From: Escherichia phage F2
Length of the DNA: 64,000 nucleotides
Direction: 5' to 3' (one strand)
Sequence record: NC_054913.1
The notes beneath the pieces are model-generated. The model saw nothing but the letters and a program-made list of their open reading frames with translations. It was not told the DNA's origin and did not search any database. A program made the position numbers and the translations under genes. Below, one piece after another: positions 790 through 48,464 of this stretch. How positions within the stretch are numbered: position 1 is the first letter of the stretch; the number at the start of each line of letters is the position of its first letter.

Positions 790-2877
790 ATGTCTGAACA
801 ATTAAATGAAGTGTTTGAATCTGAAGGCAGTCTTCCTGTCGTCAATTTGAACCCTAAAGCTAAAGTTCCACAAGTCTGGAAAATTGGTGATATCGATACA
901 AACATCGTAGTTCGCTTATTCTCTTACCTTTCTGAAGGCGATGCTGTAAAACAAGTTAAACTTGGCGACAAATACGCTCATGTTGTTATTATGAGTCTGT
1001 CTGAAAAGGGTAATCTCGCTGAATTGAAAAATGGCCTTGGTCCTGCTCCTATTGATGCAATCAACACCATTTTCAATACGGTATATGAACAGGTTAAAGC
1101 TCTTCGTATGGATGCAGTTCTGTTCCGGTTCCCTACCAAGAAATTGAAAGGACGTGGACAACAGCTTCAAACTCTTCTTGCTCGTTTAGTTTCTACTAAA
1201 ACTGGCGGTCGTTTTAAAGTATTGTCAGCAATGTATCAATTCACAGGTAAACACACCTATGTGATGATGGTTCGTAAAAATGCCAACATTGAAGATATTA
1301 AAGGCATCCCTAACATTAACACAGAGTTGTACACGAAAGTAGATTCTGATGTTGGCGAAGTTTATGTGAGTAAAAAGACTGGTGAAATGGTCACCAAAGA
1401 AGCGGCTATCGCTGGTTCTATTGCTGCTGTAGAAGAAAAACGTAAAGATAAGCCTGTTATTGCTCGTACTAAAATTTCTCGTCGTGCTATTGCAGCAAGT
1501 CAATCTTTAGAAGCTGACCGCCAAGAAGGTGAGTTATTCCAGAAATACGAAAATTCTGCTAAAGAAGTTAGTGGCCCAGCTACAGCCGAATTACTTCCTG
1601 AAGCATATGAAATCGTACTAGCCCAAGCATCGTCCACAGCAAAAGGCACTTTAGTTGCTGATATCGAAAATAAGATTTATAATCGTATTGATGAATCCTT
1701 TAGATTTGCTGATGAAGTTTCTTATGGTAGTGTTATTAAGCCAACTTTAGAAAAGTTTGCTAAGAAAATTAAAACTGAAAAAACAACATCTGTTAAAGCA
1801 TTAGCTGCTTTTGTTGAAGCTGCAAATGAAATTGCAGACTCTATTAAAGACGAATGGTTTGAAGATTTTAGACGTGATAATTTCCAACTGGCCGACGACG
1901 TTTTAGCTGAAGTATCTGAAAAAACTTGGAAACAACGTAAATCAGCGTTCTTGTCTAATGTGATGTATACTTATGCACGAGAATCGGCTAGAGGCACCTT
2001 TAATATAACAATGAATCGGGACCCTAAACAATACTCTGTTGCTGAAAAACGAGCTATTCGTGAATATGCCTCTTCTGCGTATACCGATATCAATAATATG
2101 TTGTTAGGTCGTTATAAACCAGATTTTTACGATGTTGCAGATGAAGATGAAGTTAAACGCGCTATTGATGGTCTTGATTCGGCGTTTTTAAATGGAGACC
2201 GTTTACCTGAAGGACTAACGTTATATAGAGCCCAGTCTATCAGAATGCCTATTTACGAAGCAATGGTTAAAAATAAGGTATTCTACTTCAGAAACTATGT
2301 TTCCACTTCACTAGCTCCTATTATTTTCGGTGGGTTTAAAGAGAACGTTGCCCTTGGACTTGCTCCTGAAGAAGTTCGCAAAGAGCTTAACATTGACAAT
2401 AATGACGAAGGTGTTACTATTTCTCCTAGTCAAGTAAGAACAGCTATGCATGCACCAGACCAAATCCGTGTTAACGTTGGATGGGCTATTGATGGCGCCC
2501 ATAAAGTTAACGTGATTTATCCTGGACAGTTGAGTAATCACCCTAATGAGCAAGAAATTATTTTGCCTAGAGGCATTCTCTTGCAGATAAATAAAATTAC
2601 GGATGCGTCATCTGACACTGGTGCAGGTTTAGAATCCAACCTTAAATTTATTCAAGCTGAAGTCATGTCCTCAGACCAGTTGGACGAAGTTGTCATTTAC
2701 GATGGTGATGTTCTCATGGAAACAGGCGAGGTGGTTGCTATGACTGGTGAAATCGAATCAGATGAGCCGATATCGTTCTCCTCATTTGTAGAAAAAACTA
2801 GTGCTCCTAAAGGATTGAAATTGTTAGCATCTTTAATGGATTTAGAATCAGTTCCGTTTAAATTTGTCCAAGGATAG
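790..2877 (+). CDS. alt: Alt ADP-ribosyltransferase (virion-packaged, modifies host RNA polymerase), 695 aa
   Basis: 695-aa ORF with AGGA-type RBS; N-terminus and length match my recollection of T4 Alt; synteny between gene 30 and gene 54. Confidence 0.85.
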   Translation: MSEQLNEVFESEGSLPVVNLNPKAKVPQVWKIGDIDTNIVVRLFSYLSEGDAVKQVKLGDKYAHVVIMSLSEKGNLAELKNGLGPAPIDAINTIFNTVYEQVKALRMDAVLFRFPTKKLKGRGQQLQTLLARLVSTKTGGRFKVLSAMYQFTGKHTYVMMVRKNANIEDIKGIPNINTELYTKVDSDVGEVYVSKKTGEMVTKEAAIAGSIAAVEEKRKDKPVIARTKISRRAIAASQSLEADRQEGELFQKYENSAKEVSGPATAELLPEAYEIVLAQASSTAKGTLVADIENKIYNRIDESFRFADEVSYGSVIKPTLEKFAKKIKTEKTTSVKALAAFVEAANEIADSIKDEWFEDFRRDNFQLADDVLAEVSEKTWKQRKSAFLSNVMYTYARESARGTFNITMNRDPKQYSVAEKRAIREYASSAYTDINNMLLGRYKPDFYDVADEDEVKRAIDGLDSAFLNGDRLPEGLTLYRAQSIRMPIYEAMVKNKVFYFRNYVSTSLAPIIFGGFKENVALGLAPEEVRKELNIDNNDEGVTISPSQVRTAMHAPDQIRVNVGWAIDGAHKVNVIYPGQLSNHPNEQEIILPRGILLQINKITDASSDTGAGLESNLKFIQAEVMSSDQLDEVVIYDGDVLMETGEVVAMTGEIESDEPISFSSFVEKTSAPKGLKLLASLMDLESVPFKFVQG

Positions 2878-18261: not shown

Positions 18262-18921
18262 ATGAATTATTTAATTTACAAAATAACCAATCTCATTAAT
18301 AACAAGATTTATATTGGAGCCCATGCCACTACAGATGTTAACGATTCTTATATGGGTTCCGGGGTTAACATAGTAAAATCCATAAAGAAATACGGCTTAG
18401 AGAATTTTAAAAAGGAAATCCTTTTCAATTTCGAAACATCTGAAGAGATGTATGCTAAGGAAGCCGAACTAGTTGACGAGGCTTTTGTCATGAGAACAGA
18501 TACTTATAATGCCGCCTTAGGCGGCAAGGGTAATCCTGTTATAGTAGCTTTACAGGAACCTGGGTATCGTGAGATGTTATCCGAAAAGACAAAAGCTGGT
18601 ATGACTGAAGAAGTTCGGGCCAAAATATCTAAAAAGAAATTAGGTTCTAAAGAATCTAAAGAACATCGAGAAAACAAATCTATATCAAATAAAAAGTTTT
18701 ATAAAAATAGAGATTCTCATCTTAAAGGTAGAAAACTATCAGAAGAGCATAAAGCAAAAATTAGAAAGAATTCTAATAAAGGTAAGAAATTTGTATTTGT
18801 GGATATTTCTATTAAAGGTCATGAATTTAACCACTACGATTACGCTGCCGAATTCTTTAACGTATCCGCAAAAACTATAAGAAATTGGATTAATGAACGC
18901 GATGATTGTTTTAAGCTATAG
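18262..18921 (+). CDS. GIY-YIG homing endonuclease (SegD-like), 219 aa
   Basis: N-terminal motif YLIYKITN...NKIYIG; located between genes 24 and 23 where T4 carries segD. Confidence 0.8.
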   Translation: MNYLIYKITNLINNKIYIGAHATTDVNDSYMGSGVNIVKSIKKYGLENFKKEILFNFETSEEMYAKEAELVDEAFVMRTDTYNAALGGKGNPVIVALQEPGYREMLSEKTKAGMTEEVRAKISKKKLGSKESKEHRENKSISNKKFYKNRDSHLKGRKLSEEHKAKIRKNSNKGKKFVFVDISIKGHEFNHYDYAAEFFNVSAKTIRNWINERDDCFKL

Positions 18922-18978: not shown

Positions 18979-20547
18979 TTAAATTCCTTTAACGTAGACG
19001 CGTCTAAAGTAAGCGTTCTTACCAAGGCTGTTCAGGATAGACGGCATACCGGACTGGATGCGAGCACCTGGAGCCTGCAGGGAACTTTCAGCAAACGGGT
19101 TAACACCGATACCGTAACGAGTTTTAAAGCCCATTACTGGCTGGAAGTTCTTAGGATCGGAACCACGTAGTGGGGTAAGTGCAACGTAAGGAGCATAGTA
19201 AATACCTGCATCCATTTCGTTAGCGCCTTTGTAACCAACGGTGAAGTAATCCTGTTTAGCATACTGGTCGATGTATACTCGGTATTTACCACCAAGTACA
19301 CCGGCAAATACAGATTTAGTAGTGTCGGTATTAAAACCAGAAGCCAGACCCTGTGCAGCATAAGAAATACCAGTATCAACTGAAGCCAGTACGTTAACTA
19401 CGTTACGGGAAGCGATAATGAAGTTACCTTCACCACGACCGGTTTGACGAGCAATTTCAACTGCTTCTTTATCAATCTGGAACAACAGAGCTTTAAAGCT
19501 TTCACCGGCCCAACGAGCACCACGGATATCAATCGGGTCCTGGAAGTCAAATACACCAGCTTTAGAACCAACGATATTAGTCATACCAGATTTACCAACC
19601 TGAGCGGAGTAGTTAATCCAGTCAACAACTTCACGGTTGATTTCCAGCATAATTTCAGTGGCAAGAATACCGCTCAGTTCAGCATCAGCATCCATACCGT
19701 GTACTGCACGGAGGTCTTGTGCCAATTCGATGGAGTAAGCTGCTTTCAGCTGACGAGATTTAGCTTCAATAACTTGTTTGTCGATACGGAAGCCCATTTC
19801 GTTCCACGGGTTGTCGGTAGAACCATTGAAGCCTTCCTGAAGTTCAGCGATAGAAGTAGCCATACCTTCAGCGATTTCTACCAGTACACCAGCTTCCATT
19901 TGTTTCTTAATTTCAGCATCCAGTTTAGTTGCATCGGTAGCGCCAGCATCGATTGTTACTACAGCGGAAGCTTGTAGATACACAGTACCAGTTTCCTGGA
20001 AGAAGTGAGTATAGATATCACCTACAACGGTTTGTGTGCTAGCAGCCAGAGCTGGGAATTTCTTAGCAGCACCCTGACCAGAGAACATCGCGTCTGGAGC
20101 ATACATCGGATGGAAAGCTTCTTTAGCGTCAGCAGCGATAGGGTCTTTACCATATACTGCACGGAGAGCAAATACCTGACCGGTAGGGCTGTTCATAGGC
20201 TGAACACCACAAATATCGAAAGCGATCAGATTAGGAATAGCACGACGAACCATACCCATAACTGCCGGCCCAATCTGGGTTACTGCACCAGAGGTTTGAC
20301 CTGCTGCGATGTTCTGAGCATTATAACCATGGTCGCCACCAATTTCAGCTTCGGTCAAGAAAGAACCAAATGCCTGAGCGATTTTCTCGTCTTTATATTC
20401 AGGGGATACTTCGAAATCTTTTTCCTGGTTTTCGAAGATTTTAGCGATAATAGCCTGCTTGCTATTAGCGATTTCCGGCAGGCCTTCACCTTCCAGCAGT
20501 TCTTTCCATTTGTCTACGAGCTGAGCTTTAGTTTTGATAGTAGTCAT
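18979..20547 (-). CDS. 23: gp23 major capsid protein, 522 aa
   Basis: Recognisably T4 gp23 (521 aa in T4); synteny. Confidence 0.95.
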   Translation of the reverse strand: MTTIKTKAQLVDKWKELLEGEGLPEIANSKQAIIAKIFENQEKDFEVSPEYKDEKIAQAFGSFLTEAEIGGDHGYNAQNIAAGQTSGAVTQIGPAVMGMVRRAIPNLIAFDICGVQPMNSPTGQVFALRAVYGKDPIAADAKEAFHPMYAPDAMFSGQGAAKKFPALAASTQTVVGDIYTHFFQETGTVYLQASAVVTIDAGATDATKLDAEIKKQMEAGVLVEIAEGMATSIAELQEGFNGSTDNPWNEMGFRIDKQVIEAKSRQLKAAYSIELAQDLRAVHGMDADAELSGILATEIMLEINREVVDWINYSAQVGKSGMTNIVGSKAGVFDFQDPIDIRGARWAGESFKALLFQIDKEAVEIARQTGRGEGNFIIASRNVVNVLASVDTGISYAAQGLASGFNTDTTKSVFAGVLGGKYRVYIDQYAKQDYFTVGYKGANEMDAGIYYAPYVALTPLRGSDPKNFQPVMGFKTRYGIGVNPFAESSLQAPGARIQSGMPSILNSLGKNAYFRRVYVKGI

Positions 20548-20564
20548 TTGTGTTAACCTTTAAA

Positions 20565-21377
20565 TTAGAAACGAGATGCGACTTTCGCATATAAACTTAC
20601 ATTAGAATTCTGTTCTACCTGAGTTGTGGTAGTGTCAACTGCTTCGGCAACAAAATTAAGACCGGCAGCGTCATTGTCAACTGTATTTATACCTTCGGTA
20701 ATAGCGGCTTCTTCTTTAGTAGAACCTTTAACCATTTCTACAATAGCAGTTAACTTAGTACCAAATGCGTCAGAATAATCCATACCTTCAACCAGGCCAA
20801 TAACTTTTTCTTTCTGAGATTCAGTCAGGTCTTTTACGCTTTCATTAATAGCGGTTTCACGCTGAACGTAATTGATATATGCATCACGTTTGGTAACTTC
20901 TTCGAACAAACGAGCGGTTTCTTCTTTATGTTCGGCCAGCTCTTCTTCCATTTCTGCTACAACATCTACAGATTCTTCTGGAACAACAACGTTATGTTCA
21001 ACAAACAGTTCTTTCAGACCACCAAGCATGGATTCGAACAAATCAGCTTTAATGCCTTTATCAACTGCGATTTGGTTTTCTGCGAGCCATTCTTTTGCAA
21101 GATGGTCTAGGAATTTAGAAGCTTGTTCAGCCAATTTTTTATCAGCTTTCTCTTCAGCATCTTCTTTAGCCTTTTCAACTTCTTCTTCGGCTTTTTCGGC
21201 GATGGCTTTGATATGAGATTCAGCCAGTTTGACTGCTTCCTGCTTAACGGTGGCTTCGAATACAGTGCTGAAATTAGCTTTAACGTCCGGAGACAGTTCT
21301 ACTGATTCGAAAACACTATTAAGAGCAACTGAAGTCTCGATGTTTTGAGCTTCTTTCAAAAGTTGTTCTTTGATCAT
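20565..21377 (-). CDS. 22: gp22 prohead core scaffold protein, 270 aa
   Basis: Acidic coiled-coil scaffold; length and synteny. Confidence 0.9.
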   Translation of the reverse strand: MIKEQLLKEAQNIETSVALNSVFESVELSPDVKANFSTVFEATVKQEAVKLAESHIKAIAEKAEEEVEKAKEDAEEKADKKLAEQASKFLDHLAKEWLAENQIAVDKGIKADLFESMLGGLKELFVEHNVVVPEESVDVVAEMEEELAEHKEETARLFEEVTKRDAYINYVQRETAINESVKDLTESQKEKVIGLVEGMDYSDAFGTKLTAIVEMVKGSTKEEAAITEGINTVDNDAAGLNFVAEAVDTTTTQVEQNSNVSLYAKVASRF

Positions 21378-21407
21378 TTTAGTGTCCTGTGGTTTAGATT
21401 ACATTAT

Positions 21408-21415
21408 TATTTATA
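21408..21415 (-). promoter_or_regulatory. late promoter (TATAAATA) for gene 22
   Basis: reverse complement TATAAATA about 30 nt upstream of the gene 22 start, overlapping the gene 21 stop. Confidence 0.65.
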
Positions 21416-22052
21416 ATGCTTTTAAACTCTCTGTGAGAGCTTTAAATGCTTCATCAGCACTGTTTTTGGTGATTTCCACCGAATTTTCTGATTCTGATAT
21501 TTGTTTAGGAGTAACCCAAGCATCTGGAGCAGAAGGTCCCCATACGGCATCTACGCCGACGGTTAATTTAAATCCTTCGTTCACGATACGGTACCCTTTA
21601 TTGGTGTCGGTTAAAGAACCAAGACCACGAGAGGAAACACCTGGAATCCAACCGGCGCGTATATTAGCAGCTAATTTATCGCCGGGACCATGGTCGCCTT
21701 CAATAATTCTAGCACGTCCATATACATCGTTTCCTTTCCACCACATATCTTCAATAATGATAGCGGCTTGCATAGGGTCAACATTTGCACGAGGTGGATG
21801 GTTTAATTCTCCAAGGGCTTGTTTGGTTTCGACTTGTTCTTTAATATAGTCACTTACTGCTTTTTCCAAAACACGTTTAGGATATAAACGTTTATTTCGG
21901 TTAACAACCTCTGCCTGAAGAAAAATACCTTCTATATAAAGCCCTGGTTTTAAGCCAGAATCTTTTCCATCATGAGATTCCAACATTGGAACGCCATCAA
22001 TAATCTCACCGGGTTGACCCCAAGTTTCAATAAGTAACTCGGGTTTATTCAT
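21411..22052 (-). CDS. 21: gp21 prohead core protease, 213 aa
   Basis: Length and synteny. Confidence 0.9.
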   Translation of the reverse strand: MNKPELLIETWGQPGEIIDGVPMLESHDGKDSGLKPGLYIEGIFLQAEVVNRNKRLYPKRVLEKAVSDYIKEQVETKQALGELNHPPRANVDPMQAAIIIEDMWWKGNDVYGRARIIEGDHGPGDKLAANIRAGWIPGVSSRGLGSLTDTNKGYRIVNEGFKLTVGVDAVWGPSAPDAWVTPKQISESENSVEITKNSADEAFKALTESLKAL

Positions 22053-22477
22053 TAGCTTAATCCTAATGCTTTACGACGTTTAAGAGCTTTTTTACGCTTA
22101 CGCAAGCCTTTAACTTGGCCTGAAGGGTTAGCTTTTTTAGCTTTAACGACCTTACGAGCGATTTGTCTACGTTTTGCTTTAGAAAGACCAGTTGTTTGGA
22201 ACGCGTTACGTTCACGAGTTTTACGGTCTTTAGTGCGAGTGACTTCACCACGAGAAGAAACATGTTTAACGATAAACTCATTTAACTGTTCTTCATTAAT
22301 AATGGAAGCCATTGCAACAGCTAAATCCGTTTCAGTTTCAAGCATGTTCTCGATAATAGTATTTATATCGTCAATATCGAGAGCAGAAGACAATGCATCG
22401 ATTCGGCCCTGTGCTTCAGGAATAAGTGCTTCGACATTTTCGAGTACCAATTCATAAGATTCAGGGATAAGATACAT
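22052..22477 (-). CDS. 68: gp68 prohead core protein, 141 aa
   Basis: Length and synteny. Confidence 0.85.
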
Positions 22478-22713
22478 TATTCATCGTCCTCATCATCTTC
22501 GTCTTCGTCGTCATCGCCTTCATCAGCGTCGTCTTCCGAAGCTTTAGCTTTCTTTTCTTCTTCAGGTTCTTCGCCTTCAATCAAAAATTGAGAAGCGATT
22601 TCTGCTTTGCGTGCTTCAATCAAACGAACCGTTTTTTCTGCCATTGCACTTTCAAAAAACTTTCGAGTAGCAACGAGGTCGTTTGATTTAATAGCTTGAA
22701 TTAAATCGTCCAT
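22477..22713 (-). CDS. 67: gp67 prohead core protein, 78 aa
   Basis: Short acidic protein; synteny. Confidence 0.85.
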
Positions 22714-24284
22714 TAAAAATCCTCTTGTTCTTGGTCGGGGTCTTGGAAACGAGCCTCTTTCGACTCTTCTTCAATTTGCTTAGCCTCTTGTTCAATTTCC
22801 TCGTCAGACATCTGAAGAATATCTTTCATAGCTGTTCTGTGAGAAATATATTTACCAATAAATGGTTCGGCCATCTGAAGCATATTAATGCGACGCTCCA
22901 GAATCTCAGCATCCTTTAATTCCGAGAAATAACTATCCCGATGAAATTTTATCTTAATATTATTTATTTCATCATTCCACTCATCTTCTGTAATAATTCC
23001 TTTAAGAATTAAATTAGTTTTAAGCGGGTCTAGGAATATCTCTTCAAATTTATGTTGCAGCTCACGAATAAATTTACCAAACGACAATTCATCTCGTGTA
23101 ATAGAAGTACCAGCATCAAACTGTATACCACCTTGGTCACTTGGAATACGGGTAATAGGAATACGTAAAGCCATATAAAGCGCATTACGGAACCAACGTA
23201 CATCTTCCATATTTCCAGTATTATCTGCACCTGGTAATGTGTCAACTTCTGTTACTGCTTTACCATCACGTCGTTGTAACCAATAATCTTCGGTCATCGA
23301 CATAATATGCTGCTGGTTTTTAATCTTGCCTGTAGTAGCATCATATGCAATACGGTTTTTCATAGTATTCATAACATGTTGCATATGTTCTGCTGCTTTT
23401 CTTGAAGGCATATTACCTGTATCAACGTACCATACACGACGATCAGGAGCACGAGTAATACGATAAATTACTACGGCATCCTCAAGAAGTTTTAATTGGT
23501 TCGCTGGCTTAATAGCCCGATGCAAATAACCGATGATATTTTTACCACAACAATCAACTAAACCAGAATGGGCATAAACAATCGCGGCTTTAGGGATTTT
23601 TATTTTTGTGCCAGCTTCATATATGCGACCATCACAAGCATAAGATTCGTGTGATGTGTCATAAATGAAATATTCTTTATAACCCTTGACTATTTTAACA
23701 CCGGCTTCAGTGGTTGTAATAACTTCACGGACATATTGAACTTGACGTGGGTCTAAACGACGAAGCTCTTTAATACCTTCTTTAGGGCGTTTAGGGTCAA
23801 TAATTTTATGGAAGAAAATTCGAGAATCCACATACCAACGTCTAAAATGATCTGAACCTTTACGTTGGAAAGATAAATGATTTAACACTTCGTTAAATTC
23901 ATCCAACATCATTGATTTGATGTTTGGACTAAATTTTGTGTTGTCTAAATTTATAGAAACGACTTCTGTATCATCTTCATACACGATAGCATCGGAAACT
24001 ATTTCAGAGACCGCGTTATCCACTTCATAGTTCGTCATCAAATTTCGATACGTATCGATTAATTCACGGGTTGATTTGAGCCCTGGTTCTTGACTACCGA
24101 ACATTCTCTGAAACATAGCATTATATGTTTGCTGTGCTTCATTTTCAGATACTTCGTATTCTTTAGCGCCGTCGTCTAATTTTGGTGTGGTGATAGATTC
24201 TAAATTTTCTTTTTCTTGGTCTTTGTAATCACGTTCGTCCATTTTTGCCCATGGAGCAAACAAACTTAAGATATTAAATTTCAT
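22713..24284 (-). CDS. 20: gp20 portal vertex protein, 523 aa
   Basis: Length and synteny. Confidence 0.9.
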
Positions 24285-24312
24285 TGTATTCTCCGAATGG
24301 GAATTATAGTTA

Positions 24313-24320
24313 TATTTATA
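24313..24320 (-). promoter_or_regulatory. late promoter (TATAAATA) for gene 20
   Basis: reverse complement TATAAATA 29 nt upstream of the gene 20 start; preceded by a tgggga-tttc-tcccca hairpin at 24347-24362. Confidence 0.65.
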
Positions 24321-24368
24321 TGGACTTCTCCGTCATCACGGGAAGCTGGGGATTTCTCCCCAACCAGA

Positions 24369-24860
24369 TTATTCCCACCAATCAAGAGCAAGAGTTACTT
24401 CGAACGTTTCAATCTCGTTATTGCTGTCCCAGTCAAGAGATACTTCACCAACGTTAGTAGGCCACAAGCCAACAATTTCAACTTCTTTAGTGACCGTTTT
24501 AGCATCACGAGCAAATTGACGAACGATAGCAGTCTTTTTATATTCAGCAGGTTTACCACCGGTAATTTCATTACCTTGTCCTGCTGCAATACCTTGCCAA
24601 TCAACAAATTTCTGACGAATGCTATGAGCATCATCGTTCATTACTGTAATAGTCCAATCATCGAATGTACGATCACCAGCCACGTTAATTTTACGGTTCA
24701 TATAAGAAACAGGAACCTTTTCAACGATCGCAGCAGGAAGAGCCGTAGCACGACACTGGAAGCTAAAGTTTTGCCCAAGATAAGAGATTTCTACTTCAAA
24801 CAGGTTAGGGCGAGCGAAATCACCTGATTCGAAGGCACGAGTTACGTCATCTACAAACAT
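24369..24860 (-). CDS. 19: gp19 tail tube protein, 163 aa
   Basis: 163 aa as in T4; synteny. Confidence 0.9.
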   Translation of the reverse strand: MFVDDVTRAFESGDFARPNLFEVEISYLGQNFSFQCRATALPAAIVEKVPVSYMNRKINVAGDRTFDDWTITVMNDDAHSIRQKFVDWQGIAAGQGNEITGGKPAEYKKTAIVRQFARDAKTVTKEVEIVGLWPTNVGEVSLDWDSNNEIETFEVTLALDWWE

Positions 24861-26983: not shown

Positions 26984-29309
<2,326 letters not shown>

Positions 29310-30134
29310 TTATTGTTTTCTAGGACCAGGAGGGGTTGGTGGAGTCGGGATTGGAATATCATGAGTATAAGTTTGTTCAACTTCGCCATTCCAATCTTGT
29401 GCTTCAACGTCTCTCGGTTTAATTTCTGTATCAACTGATTCAAAAACGCTGGCGGCTGATTGAAGGTCTCGTTCATTAGCATGAAAATCAAGATAAGTCG
29501 TTTTAATAAGGCCTTCTGCTGCGCCTACCGGAGGATACATCCATCCATTTACTTCAAATGTTAATGACCACTCTAAACGTCGACGGGATAAATTATCACC
29601 GTCTATTTGTTCATCCATTGCTGCTGCCATCCATACGACTTTAATATCCCTTTCAAATGGAATATCCTGCCCATATTGCTCAATCATAGTCGTATTAAAA
29701 TGCGGCTGAAAATATGGAATAATTTGCTCAACGATTTGGAACATATCATCTTCATAACGAGTAAAGATGCTCAGTTCAAAAATCATTTTAATTGGTGATG
29801 GGTTGTATTGGTCTACAATATCCTTAGTCGATTTACTCAAAAGAGAGTTATTCAATATATTCGTTTTAAACGTTGGGTTATAAACGAAATCTACCATTTG
29901 GAGATTTATACGTGGTAGAATAGTTTCGACTTTAGCCACATCTTCTTGTGAGTTTATAGAGGTCCATTTATTAAGTTTCATCATAAAGTGCTCTTTAGAT
30001 GCATACGTAATAGGAACTCTAATTAATTTATTGCCTGTAGACAATTGACGGTTAACTTGGATATTTGAAAACAAATCGCCCATCATTGTGATATATCGCC
30101 TGAACGACGAGTTGTAAAAATAACCAAACATCAT
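29310..30134 (-). CDS. 15: gp15 tail sheath stabiliser / tail terminator, 274 aa
   Basis: Length and synteny. Confidence 0.85.
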   Translation of the reverse strand: MMFGYFYNSSFRRYITMMGDLFSNIQVNRQLSTGNKLIRVPITYASKEHFMMKLNKWTSINSQEDVAKVETILPRINLQMVDFVYNPTFKTNILNNSLLSKSTKDIVDQYNPSPIKMIFELSIFTRYEDDMFQIVEQIIPYFQPHFNTTMIEQYGQDIPFERDIKVVWMAAAMDEQIDGDNLSRRRLEWSLTFEVNGWMYPPVGAAEGLIKTTYLDFHANERDLQSAASVFESVDTEIKPRDVEAQDWNGEVEQTYTHDIPIPTPPTPPGPRKQ

Positions 30135-30183
30135 TTCTCCTAACCGGCCTTTCGACCGGTGTTTGCTTTATCTTATCTATTTA

Positions 30184-30948
30184 TTAATTCATAAACCCAT
30201 CGTCAAATGGTGAATTTTGTCTACCACGGTTGTTAACTACTACATACGGCTCAACGTATTCACTTGCCTCTGAATTGATTTGCTCAACTTCAGAATATTC
30301 ATCGATATTAATGTCATGGATACCGTCAAGATTTCTAACAGGGTTAAGTTCCAAGTCACTAAATTCAGGTATATTGATACCTTCATTTTTCTGAAGCACC
30401 GGATTGATTTCTTCGCCAGAGTAAATAAACTTGCCTGCAGTAATTTTACGAATCGCATTTTTACCTACTTGATAGAATGGGTCATATGGTTCAACCCAGT
30501 TAATCTCAAACAAACTGTTATCCATTGGGAAGTATATTAAATCACCTTCCTTGGGCTCCTGATTGTTGACCTGGTGTTTGAAAAGACCTGGGTTAATAGA
30601 TAATGTAACTTCGTCTTGAACTTGCATTCCGAAGTTGCTGAAGAACGATTTCGCTCCTTCATAACCTTCAAAAGAGTTCAGATATGCAGCAAATTTCCAT
30701 GCTTTAGTAAATTTATTTTTAAGGTCCTCACCAAAGATAAGGTCCACGGCAACATATTCACGTGGAACATAAAAACATTCAATACCGCGCATCTGTATGC
30801 TTTCTGCTACTAACACATCAGCTAGGGTTTGACTATTTTCGTATTTGTTGAAGTTCACGTATTTGTTTAAAATCTCGGTTTCATTAGTTTTAGAATAGCC
30901 TTCTCGGTTTTCTAACTTTGCAAATAAATTTGAATTATACGTCGACAT
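30184..30948 (-). CDS. 14: gp14 neck protein, 254 aa
   Basis: Length and synteny. Confidence 0.85.
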
Positions 30949-31570
30949 AATTCCATCCTGCCCATTTAGGTTTGTTGTTTTTGCATCGGCCTATAACCGC
31001 GCTTGATGTGATATTAAATTCTTCACCACATTCTTTGCAGGTGTTAAATATTTTACCATTTACACTAACTTTTCGAGCTGCTGGATTTTTTGAACCAGAA
31101 AAATCAGGATGTCTATGTTTGAAATCTTTCCACATTCTTGCTGTAGATTCTTTACGTTTTCTTAACCCTTCTTCAGTCCATTTTCTTGATTTTGCGGCGT
31201 CAGACATTTTCTTTTTAGATTGGGCTGAACGTTTTTGTCCTATAGATGGATTATCTTCTGGGTTAATATACGACCTTCCGCCTGCACCACCTTTAACAAG
31301 ATTTGCGCAATTTTCTAAAATGGATAATTCATCTACCAGTAACTCTTCAGCTTCATCCATTAGAGCTTTAGATTCAAATGGCTTAGACCATATAATTTCT
31401 TTTATACAAGACGGACCGTATTTTCTTTTGGCCCTTCGTATAAAGGTACCAGACCCAGTATAAGGGTCTTTTGAAGGGTCTTCGTAAACTGATTTGTGTT
31501 TACCACCATAAATCTTTATACCGGTGGATGTTTCAAATGTTGTAATATACAATCTGTAGTATGTTGCCAT
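30935..31570 (-). CDS. free-standing GIY-YIG-like homing endonuclease inserted between genes 13 and 14, 211 aa
   Basis: N-terminal YRLYITTFE...IKIYGG with downstream conserved Glu/Asn ([15 protein letters not shown]), basic linker and a C-terminal Cys pair (CKECG...GRCK); starts 1 nt after the gene 13 stop and overlaps the gene 14 start by 14 nt. Confidence 0.65.
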
Positions 31571-31571
31571 A

Positions 31572-32498
31572 TTAACCTACCAAAATACCTGCAGGAGGGT
31601 CCAGTAAATATAACTCTTCTCGTAAAGCTTCTTTCTCTAAACGAGCTTCTTCAATTAATCGAACACCATCAACAGTGACGCCACCAGGTAACATCATACC
31701 TTGATGTCTAGCAAGAATTTGTCCGTTAAGCTCTTTAGCTAATGCAGTTGCATAATCTTTAACCCAGCGGTTGTTATATGCGCCTTGTTTAGTTGCAGGA
31801 TCTTCACCAACTCGACGTCCGACCAAATTATGGTCTGGATTATCATAACGTTCAGAAATAGACCATGAATCACGAGGACCGACCTGTCCGTACCCTACTG
31901 TATTTCCTACCATCTTATGGGTCTCGATATAAGAGCGAACATACGATTCAACGATAATGACATCTTTCTGTCTAAAGTTACCCATTACTTTTAATTGCTC
32001 GTTTGCAGAGTTAAACCAAAAATCTGGAAGAGGAGCAATCATATCTTGAAGCATACCCATATAAGATACTAATTGAGAATAATACCCGAGGTCAGCGCCA
32101 AAAGCGTTCGGACCGTAGAATTTACCACAATTACTACCCATACCACCTGAAACACCTGCCATTCCTAAAAGGAAATCAGTGAACCATGGATAAGTTGCAT
32201 TACCATCCATTGAAGTAATAGAGCCAACATTTGTTCTTATAATTCTTGTTACAGCAAATACGTTAGAACCGCGCATATCAAATACGCCGTGACGGTATTT
32301 TTCTTCGTCATCAACAAAAAATACATGGAAACCTTTATTCAACCCGTCAAAATGGTATTCGCCATAAAGTTCTAACGCTCGTGAAATACAATCATAAATT
32401 TGGTCTGTAGTTAATTCAACATTTACAATAGGAGCGCCTAAACGACGTAATATTACGTCCTTTAATTCTTTAGGGTTTTGTGCATTATAACCTGACAT
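31572..32498 (-). CDS. 13: gp13 neck protein, 308 aa
   Basis: Length and synteny. Confidence 0.85.
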
Positions 32499-32530
32499 AT
32501 AAATCCTTTAGGGCCCGAAGGCCCTTTTCA

Positions 32531-33979
32531 TTAAGCTGTAGGAAGTTCAACCCATGCACCATCTTTGCGAACATAGAATTTACCGTCTGAAGGAGCATCT
32601 TCAATATATCCAGCTTCCTTAAGAGTTTGGATTTCAGCTTCTGCAGCGGCCAAATCAGTTTCAAGAGTAGCAATTCTAGAAGTTAAACCATTAATTGTCG
32701 TATCATGACTTTTAACTGTAGGCAATATACCACGTTCTTCAACAGTCGAACCATTTGGGTTGGTGCCATTTATAAGAGTATTTAATGTGTTTACAGAACC
32801 CTTAATCCCTGTGGTATTAGTCCCAACATCAGTTTGAATGTTCTGAACGTCATTACTCATCTCACCGATAGATCCTTCAAGCGCTCGAGTACGATAAAGC
32901 AAAGAGCCGTCTGGTTCAGGTTTCCCACCTGAAGCGTCAACACCGACTACGTTATTTAACCATGACACATTAAAACGCAATCCTGACGAAGAATCAGAGC
33001 CGACAACAGTGTTCAATGCTCCGATAGCATCAGTATTGAGTTTAATACGTCCTTGGATTGTAGTAGGCAAATCATCGGTGCCGATGGCAGTTTCTACTGT
33101 AGTCAAACGAGGTTTAATACCACCTGATTGATTGAGCTCAAGATTAATGTCGTTTATTGCTGAACTATTCGCATTAGTTGTAGTAATAATGGAAGTCGTA
33201 TTAGGATACCCAATAGACTGTTTAATGCCATCTAAGTCAGCATTTTGTCGCGACAAAGTTAAATCAATACCGGAAAGACGACTAAATACTGGAGTAGTGA
33301 AAGAAGTGCGAGGTCCCATTTCTTCGCGTAAGTGTTCGACTTCACTAGTTAAAGAGCCGACGTCAGAATCAGCAAATTTAGTTTCTAAATCAGTTAATCG
33401 AACACCGTGGTCAACAATCACGGAGCTATTAGTCATAATACGGCGTTTCATACCAGTGCTATCATTTCCTGGAGTAGGAACCCCATTAATATCTTGACCG
33501 GTATATTGTCCTAATTCATTTTTAATCCAAAGCAGGTCGTTACGAACAGTTCTATAAACTGAATCTGTTTCCTGATTATAAACACCAATATCATCAGTAT
33601 TCGCATCAATATGTTCATTCAAATCATTCAATTCACTAGCATGGGTTTGAACTGTGACTTTAATGACATCGATATCTTGGGTGTTCTGACCTATCTGCGC
33701 AAGAGCATCAACATCCCCAGAAACATCTAAAATACCTTGAATAACTTTGATATCTTTATTGGCTGTATTCAGAGAAGATGCTATAGTTTTAATATTAACA
33801 TCTAACGCTTCTACGTTACGTTGAACTTCAACAATAGGACGGTTCATTACACCTTCAGAACCGTATTTTGTGTCAGCACCTGTTATTTCTTCATCGTTTT
33901 TAATCCATTCAATACGACTCTGACCCGCGTCTGGTGGGCCGTCAACATATGGTAAATCTACCAGAGTTATATCAGTCAT
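32531..33979 (-). CDS. wac: fibritin (whisker), 482 aa
   Basis: Coiled-coil repeats and a C-terminal foldon-like GYIEDAPSDGKFYVRKDGAWVEL. Confidence 0.9.
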   Translation of the reverse strand: MTDITLVDLPYVDGPPDAGQSRIEWIKNDEEITGADTKYGSEGVMNRPIVEVQRNVEALDVNIKTIASSLNTANKDIKVIQGILDVSGDVDALAQIGQNTQDIDVIKVTVQTHASELNDLNEHIDANTDDIGVYNQETDSVYRTVRNDLLWIKNELGQYTGQDINGVPTPGNDSTGMKRRIMTNSSVIVDHGVRLTDLETKFADSDVGSLTSEVEHLREEMGPRTSFTTPVFSRLSGIDLTLSRQNADLDGIKQSIGYPNTTSIITTTNANSSAINDINLELNQSGGIKPRLTTVETAIGTDDLPTTIQGRIKLNTDAIGALNTVVGSDSSSGLRFNVSWLNNVVGVDASGGKPEPDGSLLYRTRALEGSIGEMSNDVQNIQTDVGTNTTGIKGSVNTLNTLINGTNPNGSTVEERGILPTVKSHDTTINGLTSRIATLETDLAAAEAEIQTLKEAGYIEDAPSDGKFYVRKDGAWVELPTA

Positions 33980-35562
33980 TATTTTACCTTAATGATATAG
34001 TTTAAAGAAATATTCCATGGGCGAGTTTCATTTCCAATTAATTCCGGACGATTCATGGTATATTTAGAGTTACGCTGAGACGCTGGATCAATTTCATATC
34101 CCTCGTTAGTAAAATACGAACGGTTATCCCAGTCAAGTCCTTTACGAGTACCAACAAAGTTTGAACGACGAGTATTACCAAATGCACCGGAATCGTCATG
34201 TTCACCAAAACCACCAGCATGCTTATGATATGACATCTGTTGTTTTTGCACTTCACCAACATATCCACCAGTACAACCTACCGCCAGACGAGGCTTACCG
34301 AATTGGTCATTACCATTAACATTAGGGTTAGTTAAATGGTTACCACGACCTGAGCCGCGAACAAATAATCCACGCATATCAGGCAAGCCTGGGTTAGAAG
34401 AACTACCACCATATCGTGTCCCAATTCTGGAAGCATATACCGGACATTCTGAAGCAGAAACAGTCCCACCGTGACAGAAACGCCAGTCAGAACTCGGTAA
34501 ACTATCTGCAGCCCACATTGTAATAGCGCCAACTGGAAGAATTCGGTCTAATTCATTTTGAGTCACAATACGATTGCCTTGAATATAACCACCAGTCATA
34601 TTGACATTACCCGTTATATTAGCGCCACCAGAACCAACCGTCAACGTATTATTAATGCGAAGCGTGCCATTAATAGTTTGTCCACCTCGTTGGTGGATAA
34701 CATCAGCATTCCAAGCAAGGGCAGAAGAACCATCACCACCTGATTGGCTACCCGCTTGTGTAGTTAAACGAACAACTCCACGTAAAGAAGTTGTAGCCCC
34801 ACGCCCGTTTAATGTTGCGCCGGTCACTACAACTGAAGAGTTGTTACTATTTACTTCAGTCTGTGTCCCTAGTTTAACGACACCTTTATTAGTTTCTGAT
34901 GCTACTGAATTCATAAAGGTATAAGGTGAAATTGCATAGCCTTCACGCAGGGTGCCTTGTTGTGCTTGAGCAACTGTAGCCAAACGAACAACACCTGTAA
35001 TAGATTCGGTGGCGTCACTATTATTTGGAGCAATTTGCGAAATAAGTTTAATTGCTAATTGTTGCGTTTTTAACGGAGTCATTGCCGTTGTATCGTCAGA
35101 ACCAGCTAATGCCGCGGCAGAAGTTGAAATTTTAATTACACCATTTGTTGCTTCTGTTGACACTTTTGTCTGAAATACATTGTCTATTTTTTGATTCAAT
35201 TTAAGCGGAGTAATTGATGCATCGTCAATAGCTCCGGTTACTGCTTCATCTTCAGTAGCATAACGAGTTAAGCCATATTGTGTTTCGGTTGCATTAGGAT
35301 ATTGTAGACGAGCATTCAGTGTTGCCGGAGTAACAGCTTTACTATTATCTAATCCATCAATAACTTCTTGTGGAGTAGCTATTTGAATAATTCCTGGTGT
35401 AGTAGTTGTTGCTTCCGGTACGCCATTAACACCTGAAGGAGAAATAGCAGCTAATGCGGCTTGGACATTAGTGACTGTATCTGGAAAATTCGACCCCGTA
35501 GGGTCGAATTCAACGTAAATGGATTCGTTTGAAACGTGTTGGTATGTATTGTTATTACTCAT
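33979..35562 (-). CDS. 12: gp12 short tail fibre, 527 aa
   Basis: 527 aa as in T4; synteny. Confidence 0.9.
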
Positions 35563-45337: not shown

Positions 45338-45853
45338 TCACGGCCTCACATAAACATAGTTTCGTAATTGTTGAGCCCATTTGCTCCAATTTCCTACTAT
45401 AGTTTTTGTATAAACCTTAGTAAGAGTTTTTTGTACTGGAGCCGGTGGAGGTTCTGTACCAGAGTCACTTCTAGAACCGCCTGATGAACTTTCTTCTTGG
45501 TAGTTATAAATCATTTCAACCGTATAACTAAACACTTTACGAAGATTCTGAGGAGCTCTCCACAAATATAACTGTGTGGATTCATCTTTTGGTAAATCAT
45601 CCCATGAAGATGCGGTTTCAAAATCATCATTTAATCGGTATTTCAATGCATCCGAAGAAAAGCTAAACACACTTTCATATGTTCCATATAAACGATTACC
45701 ATCTACCGTAATGCCTTGTGTCGGTTCATAATCTGTTATATTTATTGACACTAAAGTTTCGGTTGTTTCTAACTGTGGAGTAAAAAGGACGTCAATAGAC
45801 GCCCCTTCCATGTCTTCTCCTAAGTCGGTATTTAAAGGAAGTATATTAGCCAA
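45338..45853 (-). CDS. hypothetical protein in the gene 5 to gene 6 interval (5.1/5.3-like), 171 aa
   Basis: ORF in a syntenic position; no motif recognised. Confidence 0.6.
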
Positions 45854-46709
45854 TTACTGAATTCTCCAATGGTGTAAATTTATAATCACATTTTTTCAAT
45901 GCTTTTAAAATTGCGTTATAACTTACATCCGGTAGATTATGTTCAATTGCTTTTTCTCTAAACCATTTATATTTCTGCGGATGAGGTTTTCCCAAATCCT
46001 CCCAAAGTTTTTTGACTTTTTCAATACTAATCCAAGGTTCAACTGATCTTAGTTTTTTATTTCTAGTATCTAATCTTGATTTTCTTATTAAAGGATTATT
46101 CCAGGATTTTTTCGTTCCTTCTATTTTTCCTGGATGATTAATTAATTTGTTTCTATATTCATCGGATTTCCATAAAGATTTGACAGTATTAGAAATACGA
46201 ATTTTTAATGTGGGATCATTTTCAAAAGCAGTTTTCATCGCATTACTCATTTTCTTTCGATATTCCGATTCCGAACATCTAAGTTTATTAATTTTTGAAA
46301 TTTTTTCTGAAAATTCTTTTGTAGATTTTCCTTTTGCCAAAGCTTTAAGTTGAGTTTCTCGATACTCAGGATTAGACCACATTCGTTTTAAATCGTTTGA
46401 AGAAAATCCATCTCCACCGTCTTTTATATTAACACACTGGCCTGTTTTTCTATATTCAGATATCCAAAATTTTTCTCTTTCATTTAAAACATCGAGTGTT
46501 GAAACGAATTCGATAATTTCGAAATCTATAGCATAGCCTGGTTTGTTTTTAATCTTTTGTATATAATCCCCGCTTCCTACGTAATTATCATCCTCTAGAT
46601 TAAAATATCTGGATTCATGCTTTCCTATATATATTCGAACCAACCCCTTTGGGTTGGTTACTGTTGATTTATAAATGTAACGGAATTGTATGGTTTTGGA
46701 TTTCTTCAT
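45846..46709 (-). CDS. GIY-YIG homing endonuclease with NUMOD-like repeats (SegC-like position), 287 aa
   Basis: N-terminal FRYIYKSTVTN...VRIYIGKH; repeated motifs ending in W.NPEYR / WKSDEYR; late promoter TATAAATA (reverse complement) at 46725-46732. Confidence 0.8.
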   Translation of the reverse strand: MKKSKTIQFRYIYKSTVTNPKGLVRIYIGKHESRYFNLEDDNYVGSGDYIQKIKNKPGYAIDFEIIEFVSTLDVLNEREKFWISEYRKTGQCVNIKDGGDGFSSNDLKRMWSNPEYRETQLKALAKGKSTKEFSEKISKINKLRCSESEYRKKMSNAMKTAFENDPTLKIRISNTVKSLWKSDEYRNKLINHPGKIEGTKKSWNNPLIRKSRLDTRNKKLRSVEPWISIEKVKKLWEDLGKPHPQKYKWFREKAIEHNLPDVSYNAILKALKKCDYKFTPLENSVIG

Positions 46710-46727: not shown

Positions 46728-48464
46728 TTATAACCCGACATCCACACGGCTACCATCAATTGTGTATTGACCAGATGAAATAGAACTCATAGATGCCATT
46801 GTTTCTGCCCAATCCCCGGCAACAGTCATATCAACATTACCATTAACAGTCCATTTAACGTTTCCGTTGACGGTGTAATCATGATTCCCTTCGACCTGAG
46901 TTTTAGCATCACCTTTAACAAGAATATCTGCATTTCCGTCAACAACTATTTTGATATTACCCTTAACGTAAAGAGTTCCATCGCCTTCAACAGTTTTAGA
47001 TTGGTTACCGCGAATAAAGATTGTGTCATTGCCATCTATTTGATGGAGGCGGTCTGCCATGTTATAATATATTTCATTAGCACCAACGTTAACAAGCTTA
47101 TCGCCAGAAATCAAGAAGTTCCCATCACCATTAGTGATGTCAAAAAGGTCTTCTACAGTTTTACGAGTACGACGCCCAGACGGAGAAACTTCCTCATATG
47201 ACCCTGTTGGATGAACTAAGCGATAACGTTCATTACCTGGAGTATCGTCAAATTCTTGGATATGGCCGCTTTCTGTTTCCATAGCATGAACGTATGGATA
47301 CTCACCACGATAACTTGATTCCGGTTCTTTAAAAAGGATACGTGAATCTAATGGAACAGGAGGACCAGCCGGGTCTTCTGGATCGGTATTTCTAGTAACT
47401 AAATCGGCACCAACTCCTGGTGAAGGCGGTGTTTTAACAGGAACGCCATATGATTCCATGTTACCAGTTAAAATAATTGTTGTTACACGTGAAGCACGCC
47501 CTTTAGTCTGTTGGAACCATAACGAATCGCGTCCAGATTTGTATGCAGTTTTCCAATCACCTGTGGCCATTGCTTTAAGCATAGTATTGAATTTTGCTAC
47601 ACCACCAACGCCCATCTGGAAGCACATGTTTTCTAATGCCATTTGGCGAGATCTGTTCATTTTAGCATAAACAGGACCTACTTTAGAATTAGAACGAATG
47701 TCTTTTTGCATCTTAGCAAGGTCCTTCTCAAATAACGCTGTTGCTTCTTCTAATGTAATAGTTCCCGGATTTCCTGTTACTTCACGCCCTACTTGATCAG
47801 ATAACAATTTATTAATTCGAGACATATCTCGGGTTTTTTCCATTACTATAAGGTGTCCAATACCTACTGTAGGATATCCGAGATGGTCCCAATACACTTT
47901 ATCACGAAGACCTTCGTCACGACGTAACATTTCTGTTATTGTAAAATTAGGGTCATCATCTTCTGGAATATTTGCTAAATCTGTATCGTCTGGGTTTATA
48001 CCATAATCCAAGTTGTTATCTTGAATTACGTTAGAGTTTGAATAATAACCAGCTTCGCCGCCTTGGTTTAATACGTTCGTATCATTACCTAAACGTCGCG
48101 GATACTGGCCTGTCGGGTCTGAAAAACCTTCAAGTCTATTAGGCTTTTCACGTACTATTCCGCCATATGTACCAAGTACAATCCCGTTTGTTTTCCATTT
48201 GTCTAAAAAATGACCATATACTCGAGTTCCTTCAACAGGACCTGTAACAGAACCACCAATACCTGACATTGATGCAGACGTAATAGGTTGAATAACAGTC
48301 ATCCATGGAAGTTTTTCTGTAGGAATACCTTGTACATCACCTTGTGTTCTCTGCGCCGGATGAAGACCAACGACTCGAACTCGAACTCGCCCTTGTTTTA
48401 ATGGGTCCATTCTATCCTCGACAACACCCACGAACCAATTAAGGCTACTGCTAATCATTTCCAT
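46728..48464 (-). CDS. 5: gp5 baseplate hub subunit with tail lysozyme domain, 578 aa
   Basis: N-terminal OB domain, central T4-lysozyme-like domain, C-terminal beta-helix repeats. Confidence 0.95.
   Translation of the reverse strand: MEMISSSLNWFVGVVEDRMDPLKQGRVRVRVVGLHPAQRTQGDVQGIPTEKLPWMTVIQPITSASMSGIGGSVTGPVEGTRVYGHFLDKWKTNGIVLGTYGGIVREKPNRLEGFSDPTGQYPRRLGNDTNVLNQGGEAGYYSNSNVIQDNNLDYGINPDDTDLANIPEDDDPNFTITEMLRRDEGLRDKVYWDHLGYPTVGIGHLIVMEKTRDMSRINKLLSDQVGREVTGNPGTITLEEATALFEKDLAKMQKDIRSNSKVGPVYAKMNRSRQMALENMCFQMGVGGVAKFNTMLKAMATGDWKTAYKSGRDSLWFQQTKGRASRVTTIILTGNMESYGVPVKTPPSPGVGADLVTRNTDPEDPAGPPVPLDSRILFKEPESSYRGEYPYVHAMETESGHIQEFDDTPGNERYRLVHPTGSYEEVSPSGRRTRKTVEDLFDITNGDGNFLISGDKLVNVGANEIYYNMADRLHQIDGNDTIFIRGNQSKTVEGDGTLYVKGNIKIVVDGNADILVKGDAKTQVEGNHDYTVNGNVKWTVNGNVDMTVAGDWAETMASMSSISSGQYTIDGSRVDVGL

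Follow-up and report, generated by a model that had tools for sequence, protein, structure and literature searches.

In phage T4, segC sits between genes 5.1 and 5.3/5.4 (PMC2988022; T4 record), and several T4 seg and mob genes have been described as promoter-less cassettes (PMC2988022). A gene named segC in the Krischvirus Phi1 has been noted as phi1-specific and absent from RB49 (PMC2839356), and we found no description of an endonuclease at the junction of genes 13 and 14 in the literature beyond this one-line mention. Here, we analysed a stretch of 64,000 nucleotides (nt) from Escherichia phage F2 (NC_054913.1; hereafter the window), which carries an open reading frame (ORF) of 211 codons at the junction of the neck genes 13 and 14. 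Very probably, this ORF is a free-standing Seg-type homing endonuclease gene, optional in the neck operon, whose putative target is the gene 14 allele of phages without the insert.

The window protein and T4 SegC share full-length collinear homology (33% identity; hhalign probability 98.1%) and the domain order GIY-YIG, NUMOD3 and I-TevI-like helix-turn-helix (HTH). Like segC, the window gene looks like a promoter-less cassette overlapping its neighbours in the late structural region (PMC2988022). Unlike segC, it lies at 13|14 and not at 5.1|5.3, presumably giving it a different target, and it re-uses the start codon of the downstream gene. GenBank names the copies in SP18, Phi1 and VR26 'segC'. 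However, orthology with T4 segC was rejected, as the site differs, T4 has nothing between genes 13 and 14, and an identity of only 33% points to a paralogous lineage.

Similarity to T4 SegF and SegG lies in genetic organisation. These too are free-standing Seg genes adjoining an essential gene, with carrier flanking sequence that differs from that of the recipient, and the mosaic, graded flanks in the window resemble the co-conversion described for them (papers cited in PMC2993671). In contrast, the putative cleavage site of the window nuclease would be nearer (~60-111 nt vs ~200-330 bp), and the stretch that would be obligatorily co-converted takes in the beginning of an essential structural gene and alters the N-terminus of the encoded protein. 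I-TevI, encoded in the T4 td intron, has equivalent Tyr, Tyr, Glu and Asn residues. It differs from the window protein in its intron location, in having a zinc finger in the linker and in one additional helix between strands 2 and 3 of the nuclease domain, and the two catalytic domains have no significant direct sequence match. Finally, Phi1 'segC' also occupies the 13|14 junction and runs into the gene 14 start, but is ~30% identical to the window protein and has its own 66-nt leader instead of the gene 14 start. This leader (1935..2000) contains a sigma-70-like sequence (TTGACT...TATGAT), a hairpin (GTTCTCGT...ACGAGAAC) and an AAGGAG ribosome site, resembling the promoter-stem-loop cassettes described for phi1/RB49 (PMC2839356).

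A Seg-type nuclease gene in the neck operon

The window phage is a Mosigvirus (RB69-like), its DNA being 99-99.6% identical to phages of this group, such as JQD51, 308Ecol101PP and moskry. The minus-strand gene order is wac, 13, nuclease ORF, 14, 15 and 16 (Table 1). A first-pass annotation, made from the sequence alone and giving no strand, had placed the ORF 1 nt past the gene 13 stop with a 14-nt overlap of gene 14, and the coordinates agree: a single base separates the TAA of gene product 13 (gp13) from the ATG of the ORF, the end of which overlaps the gene 14 start by 14 nt, and both flanking genes are complete ORFs. The same annotation had described genes 13 and 14 as adjacent in T4, and they are indeed separated by 1 nt, with nothing between, in both T4 (T4T record) and RB69. 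The ORF is not a chance frame: database proteins 100% identical to its product exist, and PHROG 314 'homing endonuclease' is matched with E 2.6e-37.

In a collection of 5.8 billion proteins, the close family of the window protein comprises 12-14 clusters that are 53-63% identical to it. The family profile aligned with T4 SegC from end to end (183 columns, E 1.1e-13), and T4 SegC itself passes Pfam SegE_GIY-YIG (PF19835). Remoter matches to the profile carry Pfam GIY-YIG (PF01541), SegE_GIY-YIG, NUMOD3 and I-TevI_DNA-bd. Residues Y8, Y21, E75 and N90 are invariant across 12 family members and fall on Y6, Y17, E75 and N90 of I-TevI in a bridging alignment; the T4 record confirmed the I-TevI sequence used. 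The N-terminal domain shows the three-stranded sheet flanked by helices that characterises the GIY-YIG fold, which together with the SegC profile match bears out its earlier description as GIY-YIG-like.

The remainder of the protein is equally modular. Residues 100-165 contain 17 K/R against 8 D/E, as expected from the 'basic linker' of the first-pass annotation, and include a NUMOD3 match (aa 105-123) that is below threshold in the window protein (Pfam, E 0.0063), with NUMOD3 matched in 11/12 family members. The C-terminal segment (aa 159-204) scored 22.6 bits against I-TevI_DNA-bd (Pfam, cut-off 27), for which the best E in the family was 1.6e-10. The family profile also matched the I-TevI DNA-binding domain structure (PDB 1I3J, E 2.7e-5), which was the top Foldseek match. 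The order of N-terminal nuclease, NUMOD3-type linker and C-terminal HTH is collinear with that of SegC. The C-terminal Cys pair reported previously is present (C178 and C181, both in the first helix of the HTH). It is not a zinc finger or metal site, because the segment aligns to the I-TevI HTH and C181 is the sole conserved Cys, with C178 and C196 varying in the family. Judged from these sequence comparisons, the 211-aa ORF is a Seg-type GIY-YIG homing endonuclease with predicted catalytic activity.

The presence/absence polymorphism anticipated at this junction was found. The ORF occurred in 11 of ~102 Mosigvirus records, intact in 11/11, with protein identity of >=99% and gene identity of 99.5-99.8%. 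The ~91 other records, RB69 included, matched a 3.7-kb query in two pieces without the ORF; T4 also lacks it. Multiple alignment of four carriers and five non-carriers resolved the insert as one clean 622-bp indel. Homologues with 53-63% identity were present at the same junction in three further genera, each with a minority presence/absence polymorphism: Gaprivervirus (9 of ~33, e.g. RZ, VR26 and SP18), Slopekvirus (16 of ~114, e.g. phT4A and many Klebsiella phages) and Dhakavirus (four phages, including MX01, EcoM005 and KIT01). The more distant seg of Krischvirus Phi1 shares the junction as well. Matches in Acinetobacter phages listed as 'next to head closure' were discarded, as they lie between genes 4 and 2, which is another site.

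Between genera, the nuclease is, by sequence identity, about as diverged as gp13 and gp14. For Mosigvirus and Gaprivervirus, identity was 60% for the nuclease vs 63% (gp13) and 61% (gp14), and for Mosigvirus and Slopekvirus it was 56% vs 50% and 52%, respectively. Within Slopekvirus, the nucleases of phT4A and ALF_ER54 were 74% identical vs 99% for gp13 and gp14, demonstrating that the nuclease gene does not simply follow the host genome. Mosaicism was also apparent in Mosigvirus SQ17, which has an RB69-type wac yet was window-type at 50/50 informative sites between 31683 and 30787, a span that includes the insert. More broadly, wac (fibritin) and the end of gene 12 (window 32700..34350) occur as two haplotypes, ~35% diverged, among Mosigviruses that are otherwise ~98% identical; SQ17 and RB69 share one and the window has the other, with a breakpoint near 32700-32740, at the wac 3' end.

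No Rfam family was detected in 29500-33000 at E <= 1 and there was no intron nearby, so the nuclease gene is free-standing, as had been proposed. The label of intron-encoded endonuclease found in some records was rejected, as there was no Rfam match and the flanking ORFs are contiguous. The late-promoter consensus TATAAATA was absent from the nuclease-gene strand between 26991 and 38928. A promoter of its own was likewise rejected, since no perfect late-promoter box is nearby and one-mismatch and sigma-70-like matches occurred at chance level. Regulatory RNA structure at the nuclease and gene 14 starts was rejected too, as these regions fold no better than shuffles. Lacking both a late-promoter consensus and significant RNA structure, the gene appears to be a promoter-less cassette expressed from transcripts of the late operon, and the absent promoter fits the co-transcription with late neck genes predicted earlier. 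A GC-rich hairpin (GGGCCTTCGGGCCC) with no T-run after it occupies part of the 32-nt spacer between wac and gene 13 (window 32510..32525). It is annotated as a terminator in one related record, but more probably stabilises RNA or acts as an attenuator inside the late operon.

Insertion junctions and the recoded start of gene 14

At the left junction, carrier and empty-site sequences do not differ until after the gene 13 stop, the single spacer base and ATGGCAAC.TA. Consequently, the nuclease starts 'MATY', as does gp14 of non-carriers (MATYDKN...). The same arrangement was observed in Gaprivervirus, where the nuclease starts MATY|YRLY and non-carrier gp14 starts MATYDS, and in Slopekvirus, where the nuclease starts MQ|FRLY after the same GGAGGAAAA spacer as gp14 (MQNWD). 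In Dhakavirus, the nuclease uses the same ATG position (ATG only). The nuclease ORF thus begins at the original ATG of gene 14, and in Mosigvirus includes its first ~4 codons too. Sitting on this initiation site, it inherits the coupling of gene 14 to the gene 13 stop. In the VR26 record (1501..2136), an internal ATG (1555) is annotated as the nuclease start; the full ORF opens with an ATG overlapping the gene 13 stop (TAATG) and reads MATYYRLY...

At the right junction, a new gene 14 ATG lies inside the codons for a conserved C-terminal Trp-Asn-Tyr of the nuclease (tggAATTATG), an arrangement also present in the three other genera. The nuclease stop codon overlaps codons 2-5 of gene 14. Together, the new ATG and the overlapping stop alter the N-terminus of gp14 in carriers, which reads MSTYNSN in Mosigvirus (non-carriers, MATYDKN), MRNSYDAS in Gaprivervirus (MATYDSR) and MRDWD in Slopekvirus (MQNWD). 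Insertion 'between' genes 13 and 14, as first described, therefore holds for the junction but not in detail, as the element lies within the opening codons of gene 14 and brings a substitute 5' end for this gene. In carrier mRNAs, the new gene 14 AUG lies within a small hairpin (window 30926..30954, minus strand). This is GAAUUAUG-UCGAC-GUAUAAUUC in Mosigvirus (-4.8 kcal/mol) and GAAUUA-UGCG-UAAUUC in Gaprivervirus, and Dhakavirus has one too; Slopekvirus has a weak one at most, and in longer context the hairpin does not outperform shuffled sequence. It might tie gene 14 translation to ribosomes finishing the nuclease ORF.

Table 1 Features of the gene 13-14 junction and neighbouring genes, in window coordinates
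Feature	Position	Strand	Remarks
Seg-type GIY-YIG homing endonuclease gene, 211 aa	30935..31570	-	ATG start; assigned from ORF, PHROG 314, T4 SegC and presence/absence
GIY-YIG catalytic domain, aa 4-98	31277..31561	-	Y8, Y21, E75 and N90 family-invariant
Basic linker with NUMOD3-like motif, aa 100-158	31097..31273	-	Charge count and NUMOD3
I-TevI-type HTH, aa 159-204	30959..31096	-	I-TevI_DNA-bd and 1I3J; holds the Cys pair
Captured gene 14 start	31560..31570	-	ATGGCAACaTA vs ATGGCAACtTA (10/11 nt), both 1 nt past gene 13 stop
Gene 14 replacement start	30935..30959	-	AGGA 30959-30956, 7-nt spacer, ATG 30948-30946; nuclease TAA 30935-30937
Recoded gene 14 5' tract, nt 1-111	30838..30948	-	Travels with the nuclease gene
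wac	32531..33979	-	Neighbour
Gene 13 (neck protein)	31572..32498	-	Upstream neighbour; 3' end same in carriers and non-carriers
Gene 14 (neck protein)	30184..30948	-	Downstream neighbour; N-terminus MSTYNSN..., not MATYDKN...
Gene 15	29310..30134	-	Neighbour
Gene 16	28806..29300	-	Neighbour

Outside the insert, carriers and non-carriers differed at 0-3 positions per 60 nt, except at the start of gene 14. Here, the window and RB69 differed at 36 nt with eight amino acid changes over codons 1-37 (111 nt), vs 19 nt and no amino acid change over the other 218 codons (654 nt). A sharply bounded tract covering the first ~90-111 nt of gene 14, followed by background-level divergence, was found in all four genera. 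For nt 1-30, 31-60, 61-90 and 91-120, the differences between carriers and non-carriers numbered 9, 3, 9 and 0 in Gaprivervirus, 8, 12, 13 and 0 in Slopekvirus, and 8, 6, 7 and 0 in Dhakavirus. The gene 13 3' end was identical in the comparisons for these three genera, except in RZ. Comparing one non-carrier with another (DK13 vs VR20) revealed no hot spot at the gene 14 start. The carriers phT4A and ALF_ER54, which have different nuclease variants, differed in the tract too, indicating that it diverges together with the nuclease gene.

In Mosigvirus, the proximal part of the tract is completely linked to the insert. Here, only the 11 carriers matched the carrier haplotype from gene 14 nt 1, and the first ~50 nt of the tract were found in 11/11 carriers and in no phage without the insert. 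Twenty non-carriers matched this haplotype only from nt 18-35 onward, with individual phages rejoining it at graded points; the remaining non-carriers were too diverged for detection with the short gene 14 query. Klebsiella phage Tauntaun, which has no insert, likewise possesses only the distal part of the carrier tract. Within the tract, the conserved Pro29 codon (nt 85-87) was changed to Lys/Gln in the Mosigvirus, Gaprivervirus and Slopekvirus carriers. As a universal carrier trait this change was rejected, because the Dhakavirus and Phi1 carrier alleles retain Pro.

Putative cleavage site and competing explanations

Under the favoured reading of an optional, free-standing homing endonuclease gene, the nuclease would be made late, by read-through of the late operon, and in a mixed infection would cut gene 14 of a phage without the insert, most likely at nt ~60-111. 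The break would be repaired by recombination with the carrier genome, copying the nuclease gene along with the stretch separating the cut from the insertion point. As repair would copy everything from the cut to the nuclease gene, the tract would behave as part of the mobile unit and end sharply, as it does. The carrier allele would escape cutting because this stretch is recoded, including Pro29 to Lys/Gln in three of the four genera. We infer that the distal tract (~30838-30878) is the immune version of the cleavage or recognition site. Non-carriers with the distal tract only would also be explained, as products of partial conversion tracts that began at a cut in the distal tract and stopped short. 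Such phages and mosaics like SQ17 are compatible with preferential inheritance. The putative cut-and-repair scheme mirrors what is established for T4 SegF and SegG, according to papers cited in PMC2993671.

A more elaborate version of this reading is possible, although we put it forward tentatively. The gene would form a composite cassette that takes the start codon and ribosome site of a neck gene, supplies a restart and carries a recoded 5' end whose boundary marks the cleavage site. It would have persisted at this junction in at least four T4-like genera, repeatedly changing the N-terminus of gp14, including Pro29 to Lys/Gln. If true, the ~90-nt boundary would provide a purely comparative way to read the cleavage site of a free-standing endonuclease from genomes.

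Several observations weigh against the favoured reading, not least that we infer nuclease activity, target and homing alike from comparison of sequences. The profile search for a GIY-YIG domain suggested by the first-pass annotation succeeded by way of the T4 SegC profile, but Pfam GIY-YIG and SegE_GIY-YIG gave no match at E <= 1 with the window protein or 12 close members, and direct profile comparison with the I-TevI catalytic domain was not significant (E 0.2). I-TevI R27 has no clear counterpart in the bridging alignment, its helix being unmatched in Seg-type proteins, while the candidates for a catalytic Arg (K24, R25/H25 and R45/R46) are not all conserved in the family. The window protein has H25-K26 vs the family consensus R25-H26. 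General recombination could also yield the observed mosaics, and the retention of Pro29 in Dhakavirus and Phi1 shows that the change to Lys/Gln is not universal. The carrier ALF_ER54 and Tauntaun, without the insert, differ at only 3 nt in gene 14, at codons 2-3, which would fit a target spanning the insertion point equally. Haplotypes were read in detail in four carriers and five non-carriers of Mosigvirus and in one or two of each in the other genera.

An insertion-point-spanning target is the main rival. Here, the recognition site would cover the gene 13 stop and gene 14 start in an I-TevI-like manner, with the insertion splitting the site to confer immunity and the tract being a hitch-hiking donor relic, not the target. 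This rival is favoured by how little ALF_ER54 and Tauntaun differ in gene 14, and both the limitation of complete linkage with the insert in Mosigvirus to the proximal ~50 nt of the tract and the I-TevI-like architecture of the nuclease are in keeping with it. I-TevI cuts 23-25 bp from its insertion site, which also counts for it. Yet in four genera the sharp end of the tract falls at nt 87-111, well past a junction site of ~40 bp, Pro29 (nt 85-87) is changed in three carrier lineages, and T4 SegF and SegG cut 200-330 bp from their genes. On balance, we consider a spanning site rather unlikely.

More doubtful still, and in our judgement improbable, is that the gene is an inactive or decaying remnant, or encodes a domesticated DNA-binding protein, kept by linkage and ordinary recombination. 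The missing direct Pfam GIY-YIG match, the replacement of the R25-H26 consensus and carriage by only ~11% of Mosigvirus records could be read this way. However, T4 SegC, which is active, also has H-K at the equivalent position, the ORF is intact in every Mosigvirus carrier, and the footprint of the recoded tract is hard to explain without cleavage. Invariance of the four putative catalytic residues despite divergence to 53-63% identity argues for selection on the nuclease. A conserved accessory gene for neck assembly, as opposed to a mobile element, might be suspected from the location in the late structural operon and the translational coupling to genes 13 and 14, but the protein has a nuclease fold and a DNA-binding domain. 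This explanation is already refuted by the presence/absence data, since ~90% of Mosigviruses, RB69 and T4 lack the gene and their genes 13 and 14 abut.

Annotation and other Seg-like genes

Most carrier genomes already annotate the gene as a (putative) homing endonuclease, and the 13|14 nuclease is of a known type and ordinary in kind. It is the start capture, the restart and the recoded tract across genera that merit specialist attention. For annotation, the gene should be treated as an optional selfish nuclease and not as a neck component; the GenBank labels 'segC', 'intron-associated endonuclease' and 'hypothetical protein' are loose. With it, the Seg genes gain a lineage that keeps to a single site within an essential late structural operon in four genera. 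Its avoidance of harm to the host is unusually clear from the start-codon capture and the built-in gene 14 restart. The comparative footprint predicts where the nuclease would cut. Mosigviruses are used in phage cocktails, and homing nuclease genes bias marker survival in co-infection. A new GIY-YIG specificity could also serve engineered nucleases in the style of I-TevI.

In the JQD51 record (PV204681.1), product names in 20011..24680 appear shifted by one gene, such that 'head closure protein' stands against the nuclease ORF, 'endonuclease' against gp13 and 'head-tail adaptor' against wac.

A second Seg-like ORF (287 aa; window 45846..46709, minus strand) lies between gene 5 (46728..48464) and 5.1 (45338..45853). 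It matched a hidden Markov model (HMM) of Seg N-terminal domains (E 5e-20) and had no Pfam match. Absent from the nearest relative JQD51, it has a near-identical counterpart in vB_EcoM-ZQ3 alone and counterparts of ~79% identity in T6-like Tequatroviruses, a distribution that suggests recent transfer between genera. A third Seg-like ORF (219 aa; window 18262..18921, plus strand) is on the strand opposite to its neighbours and adjoins the major capsid gene (18979..20547, minus strand), the position of segD in T4. It matched the Seg HMM with E 2.6e-31 and fell just under the cut-off for Pfam SegE_GIY-YIG. The window therefore carries at least three Seg-like genes, whereas RB69 was described as having no homing endonuclease genes (PMC2993671), which indicates that the RB69 group is being invaded.

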